A stretch of 63,105 nt of DNA from Candidatus Coprovivens sp. (GCA_051886175.1 JBJEXV010000003.1:1-63105); one strand, 5' to 3'. Numbered from the stretch's first letter, positions 61 to 23,736 are shown. Translations and numbers: made by a program. Notes: a model not told the origin generated them from the letters alone.

Positions 61-591
61 TTAAGCTCCTTTAATTTTTTTCTTAACATATTCGTCTTTC
101 TTAAGTACTGATAGTAAATCGTTTAAGAATACATAACTACTATAGAATAGTATGAATATTATTAATACACCAAACATTAATACTACGTACCATGATGGTT
201 GGATTTCTACCATATAAGAATAGAATATTGTTTTAAAGAAAAGTAATACATACACTAGTAAGGAATTTACTAATGATGGAAATACTTTTAATAAATTTAA
301 ATTTAATATATTGAATATAACGATTGGAATCATTAATAGCAAAAATTGATAAATTGAATTTTCTACTACGAAGAAAGATTCAATTATTAAAAAGTAATGC
401 ATTATTAATAATGATATAGATATAATATCAATTGTTCTCAAATTCATGAATAGTCCATAGAATGTTGCGTTTTCATTAGTAATTGCTCTTTTGGAAAGGA
501 AATGGAAGACTAACGCTAATATAGCAACAAGGACTGGGAAGATGATAAAGTATGGTAGTAAACTACTTAATTGATATATCACTTGTTCCAT
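61..591 (-). CDS. Polytopic membrane protein; last gene of the F1-like ATPase cluster and a possible membrane (X0) component
   Basis: The 176-aa ORF is almost entirely hydrophobic helices (LLPYFIIFPVLVAILALVF, ISISLLIMHYFLII, FLLLMIPIVIFNIL, VVLMFGVLIIFILFY). Its start lies 4 nt after the epsilon-like stop. No family motif recognised. Confidence 0.6.
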   Translation of the reverse strand: MEQVIYQLSSLLPYFIIFPVLVAILALVFHFLSKRAITNENATFYGLFMNLRTIDIISISLLIMHYFLIIESFFVVENSIYQFLLLMIPIVIFNILNLNLLKVFPSLVNSLLVYVLLFFKTIFYSYMVEIQPSWYVVLMFGVLIIFILFYSSYVFLNDLLSVLKKDEYVKKKIKGA

Positions 592-594
592 ATC

Positions 595-834
595 TTATTC
601 ACCTTCTATCAATAAATTGAATACATTACTATTATTTAAATAATAAGCTTTAACTTTATCATATAATGTTTTACCATCGACAGTTTCTATTTCAATATCT
701 CCATCTATCTCACCTACGATAGCAAGATAGTCTTTAAGAATTAATAAGTTATAATCCTTACTTTTTATTCTGATAGCAGTAACTTCGTTAAAAGTTTGAA
801 TACCATCTTTAAATGTGTAAACATTTACTATCAT
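595..834 (-). CDS. F1 epsilon-like small subunit (N-terminal beta-sandwich only)
   Basis: The 79-aa ORF start overlaps the beta-like stop (ATGA at 831-834). Its position after beta matches atpC. It is beta-rich in pattern and has no C-terminal helical hairpin. Similarity judged by eye only. Confidence 0.5.
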
Positions 835-2192
835 GATAATGGCATTGTTTCTGATGCTGCACCGATGTAACGGAATTTATCTTCATCGTAAGCATCATAA
901 GCTCCTGTTAAAATATTTTCAACGTCGATTAATACATCTTTAATATCTACGAATTTACCTGGAATATTTGTATAGTTTTCTGCAACGAACATTGGTTGTG
1001 TGAAGTAATTTCTTAATTTTCTTGAACGATAGAAGATGTTTTTATCTTCTTGAGATAATTCATCGATACCTAATACAGCGATGATTTCTTCTAGTTCTTC
1101 ATATCTTGTTAGATATTTTAATGCTTCTACAACTAGGTTGTAATGTTTTTCACCTATTATTTCTATGTCGATCATTCTACTACTTGTTTTAAATATATTA
1201 ATAGCTGGATAAATACCCTTTTCAGAAACTTTTCTGTCTAGAACTAATTGTCCATCTGTATGAGATGTAATTGTTTGAACGGCTTCGTCGTTCATATCAT
1301 CTGCAGGAACGTAAATTGCTTGGAATGATGTGATTGAACCATTTTCTAGCGAATTGATTCTTTCTTCTACTTCTGATACATCACTTTGCATTGTTGTTGG
1401 ATAACCATTTTCAACTGGGAATCTTTTTAATTCTGTTGAAATTTCTGATTTTGCTTGTACGAAACGATAAATGTTATCAATGAATAATAATACGTCTTGG
1501 TTCTTTCTATCTCTTAAGTATTCAGCTAGTGTTAATCCACTATATACTGCTTTACTTCTTGATACTGGGTTATCACCCATTTGTCCAAATACGATTGAGA
1601 TTTTATTTAATAAATCTGATTCTTTCATTTCATCGTATAATTCTTTACCTTCTCTTGAACGTTCTCCAACTCCTACGAATACGGCATTTGAGTTACGGCT
1701 CTTATAAATGTTATTGATTAACTCTTTAATAAGAACTGTTTTACCAACTCCGGCACCTCCAAGAAGACCCATTTTGAATCCTTTACCGATTGGTGCGAAG
1801 AAGTCGATTACTTTTATTCCTGTAGGTAGGATTTCTGATTCTACTTTTAAATCTGAAATTTTTAATTCGTTATTATATACTGATCTTACTTCTGGATTTT
1901 CAATTGTTGTTCCGTCGATAAGTTCACCATATGAATTAAATACCTTACCTAAGATATTATCTGAATATTCAATTGCTAAACCATCACTTAGTTTTTGAAC
2001 TTCGATACCTCTTTTTAAACCTACTACTGATTGTAATGGAATACTTGTAATACTGTTGTTGTTGATTTCAACAATCTCAAATTTGTATTTACCATCTTGT
2101 GTACTTACAATGTCTCCAATTTTATAATCTTCAGGTTGTTCAGAGTAGATTCTTACGTTAATGTCTGATATTGCTATAATTTTATTTATCAT
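831..2192 (-). CDS. F1-ATPase beta-subunit-like protein
   Basis: Walker A GGAGVGKT; catalytic block [16 protein letters not shown]; DELSEED-like DELSQEDK; RBS GAAGGGG upstream of the ATG. Confidence 0.9.
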
Positions 2193-2197
2193 CTACA

Positions 2198-22893: not shown

Positions 22894-22905
22894 GTTGTAT
22901 ACCTC

Positions 22906-23664
22906 CTAATCTGTTAATACTGGTAAATTTTCTATATTTTTTTGTAACAAGAATGAGCCATCACTCACCGCTACTGAATCATAACTTAAATTAATTGTAT
23001 AATCTTCAAATTCCATAATTACATCATCTGTTACATTTTCGTATAAAACAGCTTCGTTTTTTTCGTAATTATAGACTGACAAATCTCCATGATAGTAGCA
23101 ATCTACAAACGACATAGGAGATAATTCAACTACGTTAGATCCCCATTTTAACGTTCCTGCTTCTGTAAAGAAATATAAATCTCCACCATCATAGATAAAC
23201 CCATCTATTAAGGCATACTTTAGTCCTTGATTTGTTATAATAGTTTGAATTCCTTCAGCATTTGCTACTGTATATCTGTTAAGTTTCTTTTGAATTTTTC
23301 CTTCTATCGGAAATATAACTGACATTGTATTTGGGAAGACTGCTTCTTCTTTATTAGCATAATATAAAGGTTCATTCATCAAATCCATTTCAAAATCATC
23401 ATCTATATAAAGTTTTGTTACCTTTTCATCATGATCTAATGTTATTTGCGAATCAAATTCCATTATCGCATCTTGTATAACCAAGTAAACTGGTTCGTTT
23501 TTAATTGAATATTGAACTAATTCTTGTTTAGCTTGGAATACTGCTAATAAAACCCCTACTAATAGTACGAACGCTGCAAAACTTATCACAATTGCAGGTG
23601 CGTGTTTAATTATCCATTTCTTAAAAGAAAACTTCTTTTTCTTATTTTCTGTTGTTTTAGTCAT
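22906..23664 (-). CDS. N-terminally anchored extracytoplasmic protein; first gene of the operon
   Basis: I chose the start at 23664 (MTKTTENKKKK) because GGAAGG lies upstream of it, which shortens the listed ORF by 5 codons. TM is PAIVISFAAFVLLVGVLLAVF. Only 12 nt separate it from the 3396-aa gene. Confidence 0.6.
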   Translation of the reverse strand: MTKTTENKKKKFSFKKWIIKHAPAIVISFAAFVLLVGVLLAVFQAKQELVQYSIKNEPVYLVIQDAIMEFDSQITLDHDEKVTKLYIDDDFEMDLMNEPLYYANKEEAVFPNTMSVIFPIEGKIQKKLNRYTVANAEGIQTIITNQGLKYALIDGFIYDGGDLYFFTEAGTLKWGSNVVELSPMSFVDCYYHGDLSVYNYEKNEAVLYENVTDDVIMEFEDYTINLSYDSVAVSDGSFLLQKNIENLPVLTD

Positions 23665-23707
23665 ATCTTTACCTTCCAATTCTATACAATTCTACACTAT
23701 ATACAAT

Positions 23708-23736
23708 ATAATAACACTAAAGTCCAAATCTATCAA
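23708..23736 (-). promoter_or_regulatory. Sigma-A-type promoter of the surface-protein/F1-like ATPase operon
   Basis: Minus strand reads TTGATA-17 nt-TATTAT, about 40 nt upstream of the 23664 start and just downstream of a terminator. Confidence 0.55.

Follow-up and report, generated by a model that had tools for sequence, protein, structure and literature searches.

A divergent F1-like ATPase gene set lacking an ion path and linked to giant surface-protein genes in RF39-type gut bacteria

One end of a 63,105-nucleotide stretch of DNA from Candidatus Coprovivens sp. (GCA_051886175.1 JBJEXV010000003.1:1-63105; hereafter the window, 29% GC) carries eleven co-directional open reading frames (ORFs) on the minus strand, at 61-23679. 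Seven of them encode an F1-like ATPase module and four encode membrane-anchored surface proteins, the largest of 3396 amino acids (aa). An earlier note, made from the sequence alone, had read the eleven as a single operon and proposed a surface machine driven by ATP hydrolysis, analogous to systems known from mycoplasmas. Overall, our analysis partly confirms that observation and partly supports its interpretation. The features of the locus are listed below in the order in which the minus strand is read.

23736 to 23708, minus strand: promoter-like site TTGATA-17-TATTAT with a TG before the -10 hexamer (extended -10); pattern search.
22906 to 23664, minus strand: type-II anchored exoprotein, 252 aa; transmembrane (TM) scan, start-site check, synteny.
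12703 to 22893, minus strand: giant exoprotein, 3396 aa; TM scan, with Glug, ALK_LTK_GRD and fn3 in homologues.
12684 to 12725, minus strand: intrinsic-terminator-like hairpin and U-run, overlapping the stop codon of the 3396-aa gene; folding compared with shuffles.
12660 to 12631, minus strand: promoter-like site TTGTAA-18-TATGAT upstream of the 1827-aa gene; pattern search.
7139 to 12622, minus strand: exoprotein with an N-terminal TM segment, 1827 aa; TM scan, with fn3 in homologues.
5532 to 7124, minus strand: type-II anchored exoprotein, 530 aa; AlphaFold2 (AF2) model, Foldseek, FN3 profile match.
5273 to 5518, minus strand: c-like proteolipid with two TM segments, 81 aa; Pfam ATP-synt_C, alignment of 40 homologues.
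4530 to 5273, minus strand: b-delta-like peripheral-stalk protein, 247 aa; AF2 model, Foldseek, hhalign.
2976 to 4508, minus strand: alpha-like subunit, 510 aa; Pfam ATP-synt_ab, Lys finger GIKPAI.
2198 to 2983, minus strand: gamma-like central-stalk subunit, 261 aa; Pfam ATP-synt.
831 to 2192, minus strand: beta-like catalytic subunit, 453 aa; Pfam ATP-synt_ab, atpD model, catalytic motifs.
595 to 834, minus strand: epsilon-like subunit, 79 aa; atpC position, weak hhalign match, synteny.
61 to 591, minus strand: polytopic protein, 176 aa, the last gene of the ATPase module and a candidate "X0" membrane partner; TM scan, synteny.

The ORF calls bear out the tight packing and the sizes that had been claimed. 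Adjacent genes overlap by up to 8 nt or are separated by up to 21 nt, with the sole exception of an 80-nt gap at 12623-12702, and most of the eleven genes are preceded by a Shine-Dalgarno-like (GGAGG-type) ribosome-binding site (RBS). For the 252-aa gene, an ATG start at 23664 is likely (the alternative TTG at 23679 would give 257 aa), and for the 1827-aa gene the combination of RBS and ATG suggests that the true start is probably at 12613. The note's standard genetic code fits the cluster, in which TGG is the only Trp codon (121 codons) and three genes end in TGA. Its membrane topology is likewise reproduced by the hydropathy scan: the 252-, 530-, and 1827-aa proteins each have one N-terminal TM segment and the 3396-aa protein has one at either end, while the 247-aa, c-like, and 176-aa proteins have one, two, and five, respectively. 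The ATPase motifs that it quoted, and DELSQEDK, are found in the translated products. Two genes further upstream, encoding 540 and 508 aa, were considered as cluster members and rejected, as they are not kept beside the cluster in relatives.

Relatives were surveyed with the beta-like protein as the query against one genome per GTDB species. This returned 49 loci at 59-79% identity to the window beta, below which there is a gap down to canonical AtpD (at most 47%). Almost all are from gut metagenome-assembled genomes (MAGs) labelled Bacilli, Tenericutes, Mollicutes, or Mycoplasmatota; some carry Clostridia-type names, which are apparently mistaken labels. Candidatus Faecimonas intestinavium, among the closest relatives, is assigned by GTDB to order RF39, family CAG-611, and the taxonomy of the host group (RF39-type) as used here is based on the MAG labels and this one assignment.

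The catalytic head and central stalk are readily identified. Pfam ATP-synt_ab matches both the beta-like (1.8e-69) and the alpha-like protein (8.6e-69), ATP-synt matches the gamma-like protein (72.2 bits vs. a cutoff of 39.9), and ATP-synt_C matches the c-like protein (34.6 bits), so the four identities proposed earlier hold; the order c-b-alpha-gamma-beta-epsilon is that of canonical atp operons. On the equivalog models, on the other hand, beta and alpha lie about 340-380 bits below genuine AtpD and AtpA. The beta-like protein scores 466.0 bits on TIGR01039 (atpD), marginally over the cutoff of 462.85, compared with 789-812 for genuine AtpD, and the alpha-like protein scores 390.6 bits on TIGR00962 (atpA), under the cutoff of 484.45 and compared with 770-776 for genuine AtpA. 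The latter protein is in fact below every NCBIfam cutoff.

Within the family, beta identities are 56-100%, vs. 37-48% to canonical AtpD, whereas canonical AtpD proteins compared across phyla have a median of 66%. In a beta tree with canonical AtpD, the beta-like proteins are monophyletic on a long stem. An exhaustive HMMER search over 1.84 billion representatives recovered four full-length family members at 607-627 bits and no intermediates between the family and AtpD, the next full-length match being at 374 bits and 43% identity. Whether these proteins branch inside canonical AtpD had been set as a check, and the beta family is separate from it.

Despite this divergence, Walker A (the P-loop), GERSREG with its catalytic Glu, and Walker B are kept in 50/50 beta-like proteins, with only conservative changes in the flanking positions, and a DELSEED-like loop is also kept. 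The alpha-like proteins are more altered. The arginine finger of the canonical xRPA motif is Lys in 42/42 family members vs. Arg in 17/17 canonical alphas; in F1, mutants of this Arg are strongly impaired, although rotation persists (PMC5380711). The alphas are also short (438-454 aa) with a truncated C-terminal domain, and many carry a disordered acidic or Pro-rich tail (70-540 aa), which can be at either end. In the window (4299-4508) and in locus L006 it is N-terminal and about 70-170 aa long; other lineages have it at the C-terminus, with 150-540 aa (tailed alphas at L013 6526-9198, L048 3938-6889, and L047 7121-9151). Because the alignment to canonical alpha models begins at model position 5-12, the delta-binding N-terminal segment is probably retained; on the Type 2 and Type 3 mycoplasma models (see below) the alignment covers the protein from the beta-barrel only.

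The epsilon-like protein is confined to the N-terminal beta-sandwich, the C-terminal helical hairpin being absent, and aligns over its full length, if weakly, with the canonical epsilon N-domain (hhalign E 0.0027, Prob 11%). A short epsilon is not unique to the family, because canonical atp operons from two gut "Bacilli" MAGs (L056 and L057, 11256-11555) encode an epsilon of 91 aa. A possible tie of the epsilon-like proteins to mycoplasma proteins through DUF5439 was dropped, as only 1 of 26 members matches it, below the cutoff.

The membrane parts are where the module departs most visibly from an ion-translocating enzyme. The c-like proteins are 51-87% identical across the family and keep the GxGxGxG motif and the polar loop that faces gamma and epsilon (RNPET, equivalent to RQPE). 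The carboxylate, which the note reported as lost, is indeed missing: the residue at the E. coli D61 position is non-acidic in the window and in all 40 aligned homologues. Searches of all cluster products with Pfam and NCBIfam detected no subunit a, nor is there an atpB beside the cluster in the window or about 50 relatives, a result that applies to this locus only; the flanks consist of a convergent 158-aa gene or of surface-protein genes. An atpB just outside the window had been named as something to look for, and the convergent 158-aa gene is what lies there.

We considered whether the 176-aa polytopic protein could be subunit a or AtpI, and rejected this, as a comparison with the subunit-a profile gave an hhalign Prob of 0.4% and the 24 members tested have no consistent Pfam match. 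BLAST found a homologue of this protein in 28 of 47 testable loci and missed it in 19. In 17 of the 18 BLAST-negative loci that were checked, the same slot is occupied by a gene for 163-270 aa whose product has 2-5 hydrophobic segments (three or more in 16). The 176-aa protein is a candidate for the membrane partner, or "X0".

The 247-aa b-like family has no sequence match in Pfam, NCBIfam, or the PDB, and its profile also draws a blank against the PDB. In a profile-profile comparison (hhalign), the 95 residues at its C-terminus, which are conserved, nevertheless match the C-terminal domain of canonical delta (E 2.3e-4, Prob 44%), and the alignment includes the terminal GG..I....D.S-type motif of delta. 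In an AF2 model based on an alignment of 43 homologues (predicted local distance difference test [pLDDT] 71), a TM helix leads to a long helix; a disordered linker then connects to a helical bundle and a small beta domain. In Foldseek comparisons with the PDB, the top 24 of the 26 best matches are all delta/OSCP or mycobacterial b-delta proteins (best E 0.013). Because the profile and fold comparisons agree, and the N-terminal segment of alpha is likely kept, the 247-aa protein is probably a b-delta fusion that would provide a one-gene peripheral stalk. The statement that no delta was recognisable therefore needs revision, albeit on weak scores.

At the window edge, a Logan contig of the same species (L001; proteins 99-100% identical) diverges from the window just past the stop codon of the 176-aa gene. 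In the stretch compared (L001 4217-4260, window 1-60), L001 has a GAGCTTAAAAAGCTC hairpin followed by T8, a terminator, and then the convergent 158-aa gene, and the window reads GAGCTTAAAAAGCTGAAGTTG. Either the strains differ by a rearrangement here, or there is a junction at this edge of the window.

Taken singly, the four surface proteins have no sequence match in Pfam, NCBIfam, or the PDB, and BLAST detected neither similarity among them nor internal repeats. Families and models are more informative. For the 530-aa protein, the AF2 model (pLDDT 79) shows a TM helix and next to it an all-beta juxtamembrane domain, which is conserved, and then a linker leading to two FN3-like domains; Foldseek matches FN3 tandems (E 3e-6), and the family profile matches FN3 in the PDB. 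The 1827-aa family contains multiple FN3-type modules, with Pfam fn3 in 14 of 22 homologues. In the 3396-aa family, Pfam finds Glug in 9 of 17 members, the glycine-rich domain ALK_LTK_GRD in 3 of 17 (1.9e-40), and fn3 in 2 of 17, and the family consensus has repeated GGxxG units of beta-helix type. Beyond FN3, the giant proteins and their profiles return nothing from the PDB or NCBIfam, and the 252-aa protein has no match in the PDB. The 3396-aa protein has an N-terminal TM/signal anchor and a C-terminal TM anchor (aa 3359-3377) followed by a short basic tail, and the latter two are kept in full-length relatives. The predicted module architectures of these proteins are of ectodomain type.

What ties the two parts of the locus together is their persistence side by side. 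The same eleven genes occur together and co-directional in at least 49 species-level genomes of RF39-type gut Bacillota, spanning 22-61% GC. Counting only loci with enough flank, epsilon is present in 48/48, gamma in 45/45, alpha in 42/42, the c-like gene in 39/39, and the b-like gene in 37/40. Of the surface-protein genes, that for the 530-aa protein is found in 37/37 loci, that for the 1827-aa protein in 29/34, and, downstream, those for the 252- and 3396-aa proteins in 42/45 and 39/43, respectively. The 252-aa gene always precedes the giant gene in relatives (42/45 loci). Independence of the surface and ATPase genes in related genomes had been set beforehand as a refutation test of the linkage; we found co-occurrence in all or nearly all loci with flanks.

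The usual order in relatives is 1827-530-c-b-alpha-gamma-beta-epsilon-176-252-3396. The window has a cyclic permutation of this order, with the 252-3396 pair upstream, and the congener L086 directly shows the identical arrangement. Two further loci (L006 and L007) lack the pair downstream of the ATPase module, as the permuted order predicts. Both orders hold all eleven genes together. Because the linkage survives rearrangement and spans lineages of 22-61% GC, we take it as strong evidence, drawn from comparative genomics, that the ATPase and surface genes form a functional unit. Each clade of the beta tree is coherent in GC content, a pattern that points to ancient and largely vertical inheritance.

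When the window is compared with L086, identity is 94-95% for alpha, beta, and epsilon, 91% for c (53 residues aligned), 83% for the 176-aa protein, 76-77% for gamma and the b-like protein, and 54%, 32%, and 34% for the 530-, 1827-, and 3396-aa proteins, respectively. Such a steep gradient is typical of exposed, diversifying surface proteins, which these would be. It should also be noted that one record with the whole cluster (L046; QUFC01000004.1, "Lachnospiraceae bacterium AM48-27BH", 47% GC) is labelled as an isolate and not as a MAG; its giant gene is split into two ORFs. If the label is correct, this strain would provide a cultured handle on the system.

The transcription signals modify the picture of a single operon. 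The promoter that the note placed ahead of the cluster is present as a site at 23736..23708, with its upstream TG, and is preceded by a terminator-like hairpin of the upstream gene (23752-23795). However, promoter-like patterns are not enriched in the window over shuffles (75 found vs. 88.8 expected), and in such AT-rich DNA a pattern of this kind is therefore weak evidence taken alone. The note also found no strong terminator before the window edge, which is contradicted by the hairpin and U-run at 12684-12725 (-16.7 kcal/mol, z = -4.07; none of 200 shuffles folds equally well). This hairpin is followed by the promoter-like site at 12660..12631, and a good RBS for the 1827-aa gene lies downstream of that site. 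The equivalent junction in L086 also features a hairpin, though one that differs in sequence (z = -3.1), together with a U-run and a TTGTCA...TATAAT site. The 1827-aa gene leads the cluster in most relatives. From the internal hairpin and U-run, the promoter-like site and RBS, and the matching junction features in L086, we infer that in this clade the cluster probably consists of two tandem transcription units, one with the 252- and 3396-aa genes and the other running from the 1827-aa to the 176-aa gene, rather than of one operon.

It is known that mycoplasmas carry additional ATPases of this general kind, and we scored the family on the models available for these and for other F1-related enzymes. 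On the Type 3 models, beta reaches 419.8 bits vs. a cutoff of 570 (NF045934, MSC_0618_beta) and alpha 302.2 vs. 520 (NF045936, MSC_0619_alpha), and the same models give canonical AtpD and AtpA 425-456 and 330-338 bits, matching or exceeding the family proteins. The Type 2 models give 379.8 vs. 850 for beta (NF045858, MMOB1670) and 375.6 vs. 600 for alpha (NF045863, MMOB1660), and the N-ATPase models 400.0 vs. 752 (TIGR03305) and 349.5 vs. 750.5 (TIGR03324). The best score on FliI/SctN models is 219 vs. a cutoff of 619, and the cluster has separate alpha and beta genes. G1 beta is as distant from the window beta as ordinary AtpD or more so (316 bits vs. 379-389), and a protein that is likely the G1 beta representative is only 40% identical. 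A special kinship with mycoplasma Type 2 or Type 3 is therefore unsupported, as canonical AtpD and AtpA score equally well or better on those models; judged by these comparisons, the family is an independent lineage, or at least one separate from both. Of the analogy with mycoplasma systems, what stands is a divergent F1-like set linked to surface genes, and what falls is any particular affinity to Type 2 or Type 3.

There are parallels with the mycoplasma systems. The Type 3 "F1-like X0" ATPase (MSC_0618/MMCAP2_0575-0581) is required for antibody cleavage by the MIB-MIP system (PMC3369863, PMC12994834), and its locus encodes a 12-TM protein, a small cytoplasmic protein, gamma, epsilon, a large signal-peptide protein with two C-terminal TM segments, alpha, and beta (PMC12994834). 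It is an extra set of F1-derived alpha, beta, gamma, and epsilon, as the present family would be. In both, subunit a is missing and the genes share cluster and orientation with those for membrane-anchored surface proteins, one partner having a C-terminal TM anchor. The Type 3 enzyme has been proposed to energise conformational work outside the cell. The differences are in the gene order (12TM-cyt-gamma-epsilon-87 kDa-alpha-beta, compared with c-b/delta-alpha-gamma-beta-epsilon-5TM here) and in the parts: Type 3 lacks homologues of c and b as well as the N-terminal stalk-binding helix of alpha, all three of which are apparently kept here. Conversely, the present cluster has no 12-TM protein, and no MIB or MIP homologue was detectable among its surface proteins. 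The host is also different, being an RF39-type gut bacterium of the Bacillota that uses the standard code.

With the Type 2 G1-ATPase of M. mobile (MMOB1610-1670; PDB 9io5; PMC11864180), the family shares its derivation from F1 and, as proposed, the transmission of force to giant surface proteins. Gli349 and Gli521 of M. mobile are similar in size to the 3396- and 1827-aa proteins. Searches of NCBIfam and the PDB, whose content of Gli sequences was not checked, returned no match for the giants. The giant Gli genes are at a separate locus, whereas the giant genes here adjoin the ATPase genes. G1-ATPase keeps the arginine finger (PMC11864180), which is Lys in the present family; its beta has a large N-terminal dimerisation domain and its alpha lacks helix H1, whereas beta here is 453 aa without an extension. 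Both Type 2 and Type 3 alphas lack the delta-binding N-terminal segment (PMC11864180, PMC12994834). A b-delta fusion origin has been proposed for M. mobile GliD (PMC11864180).

Compared with canonical F1Fo (atpIBEFHAGDC), the module has the order c-b-(delta)-alpha-gamma-beta-epsilon, the beta catalytic motifs, gamma, the epsilon N-domain, and a c hairpin with GxGxGxG and polar loop. It differs in having no subunit a and no c carboxylate, in the replacement of the alpha Arg finger by Lys, in the truncated C-terminal domain of alpha, and in being locked, as seven module genes, to four surface-protein genes. In place of a b dimer and a separate delta, it has a single stalk gene with a TM helix and a fused delta/OSCP-like head, as assigned from weak scores. 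A similar combination of b-type membrane helix and delta/OSCP head in one polypeptide occurs in mycobacterial b-delta (e.g., PDB 7njk chain d). There, however, the fusion is part of a normal proton-driven enzyme and is accompanied by a second b and by subunit a. The likeness is structural, and weak.

F1-like ATPases were described by Beven et al. as mycoplasma-specific, with "no equivalent in other bacteria" (PMC3369863), and papers from 2025 and 2026 still treat them in this way. Our literature searches found no description of this cluster, nor of F1-like ATPases outside mycoplasmas or in RF39, in line with the earlier remark that the combination was not recognised as described. The accessory proteins of the cluster are annotated, where at all, as "hypothetical protein."

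As read from its genes, the module is a divergent, non-canonical F1-like set that forms a discrete clade, lacks an ion path, and carries a Lys finger. The parts list of rotor (gamma, epsilon, c) and stator (an alpha3beta3-type head, b-delta) appears complete, with the ion path removed. We lean towards the interpretation that this is an ATP-driven machine derived from F1Fo that moves no ions and most likely assembles with the four surface proteins into a single machine of the cell envelope; the mechanical work that the ATPase would perform on the surface proteins is deduced from the gene content, from synteny, and by analogy. ATP hydrolysis would turn, or at least twist, gamma, epsilon, and the c-ring against an alpha3beta3 head held by b-delta. 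Because there is no ion path, the work would go to neighbouring membrane proteins, being delivered within the membrane to the polytopic protein and to the TM anchors of the surface proteins. The giant ectodomains would then pass through conformational cycles (movement, attachment and release, or resetting), in parallel with the proposals made for mycoplasma Type 2 (gliding) and Type 3 (MIB-MIP). We regard as tentative a bolder version, in which the family is a fourth, unrecognised lineage of F-ATPase-derived motors whose ion-dead c-ring and b-delta stalk deliver torque to the anchors of giant FN3/beta-helix proteins, as a new motility or adhesion-cycling machine; since the c and stalk subunits are still present, it may also represent an intermediate in the conversion of ATP synthases into the Type 2 and Type 3 machines.

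Several points weigh against a motor of this kind. With Lys at the finger position of alpha, catalysis may be slow or altered. Conservation of the polytopic protein is poor, unlike what one would expect of a stator that receives torque, and the scores behind the delta assignment are weak (Foldseek E about 0.01-0.1, TM scores of 0.26-0.40; hhalign Prob 44%). If these bacteria have a cell wall, the machine would need to work through it. Finally, the hairpin that splits the 252- and 3396-aa genes from the rest may allow the two parts to be expressed separately.

Tight linkage to very large bitopic exoproteins would be equally expected of an ATPase dedicated to the export, insertion, or assembly of the giants (by secretion, folding, or extraction; compare FliI/FliJ). 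Type III secretion systems set a precedent, in that their protein export makes use of F1-like hexamers with a central shaft (PMC11864180), and a carboxylate-free c-like ring could be structural or form a pore. We nonetheless consider this role unlikely: the surface proteins have ordinary N-terminal TM/signal anchors suited to Sec/YidC, no export-gate proteins are among the cluster products, FliI/SctN models fall far short (219 vs. 619 bits), and gamma, epsilon, c, and b-delta are all kept, which is not the layout of a homohexamer with FliJ and FliH. The Lys finger of all 42 alphas, suggesting slow turnover, could instead point to a switch or scaffold that does not rotate, in which a membrane-tethered F1-like head clusters or gates the surface proteins and the c-ring and b-delta are only anchors. 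Subunit a, which would part rotor from stator in the membrane, is missing, and the long disordered acidic tails of alpha could tether or recruit. But the beta catalytic residues and DELSEED-type loop are invariant, purifying selection on gamma, epsilon, and the c-loop in contact with them would be hard to explain without torque transmission, and we judge this explanation improbable.

There is very little to recommend the idea that the module is simply a very divergent ion-translocating F-type ATP synthase or ATPase with surface genes as unrelated neighbours. It is true that beta is marginally over the atpD equivalog cutoff (466 vs. 462.85), that the gene order c-b-alpha-gamma-beta-epsilon is canonical, and that no canonical atp operon could be demonstrated at another locus of these genomes. 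However, the c carboxylate is absent from every aligned member, there is no subunit a in or beside the cluster in the window and about 50 relatives, alpha fails the atpA models, and the surface genes stay attached through the permutation of gene order and across 22-61% GC. Least credible of all is that an atp operon was duplicated and one copy is now non-functional and in decay. Decay would account for the loss of the carboxylate, subunit a, and the Arg finger and for the truncated alpha C-terminus, yet about 50 genomes have all reading frames intact, 50/50 betas keep the catalytic motifs, and the c-like protein is still 51-87% identical across the family. The losses are common to all members and are therefore old and fixed, not signs of ongoing decay.

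The rest of the window holds some features apart from the cluster. A T-box leader at 28818-29014 (minus strand; 117 bits vs. a cutoff of 93) is directly upstream of a glutamate--tRNA ligase gene (27126-28820), an ordinary arrangement. A homologue of DinD (DNA-damage-inducible protein D) is encoded at 31901-32719 (minus strand; 351 bits vs. a cutoff of 242), adjoining genes for an MscS-like channel and topoisomerase III (35648-37765). A Drt2-type antiviral reverse transcriptase at 37894-39252 (minus strand) scores 331 bits vs. a cutoff of 390; near it (with 41985-43004 and 53707-54315) are an MqsA/SocA-like antitoxin fusion and an RstR/DicA-like repressor, and GC content falls to 22-25% around 38-42 kb. 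This region may be a defence or mobile island.

There is a practical side to the recognition of the F1-like family. Because its beta just passes the atpD model, annotation pipelines are likely to label the module "F0F1 ATP synthase," and metabolic reconstructions of RF39-type bacteria could wrongly credit these organisms with a proton-coupled ATP synthase. Biologically, the family would extend surface-working F1-like ATPases from mycoplasmas to a large group of uncultured gut Bacillota, with an architecture more complete than that of the mycoplasma types, in that the c-ring and stalk are kept and the putative partners are encoded alongside. It offers a natural experiment in what becomes of an F-type motor once the ion path is removed, and the family-wide change of the finger from Arg to Lys is open to biochemical test. 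The cluster is also a candidate explanation for how giant, fast-evolving surface proteins are handled in reduced-genome gut bacteria. If the proposed mechanism is true, the machine would be widespread in the uncultured RF39-type gut bacteria of humans and livestock.

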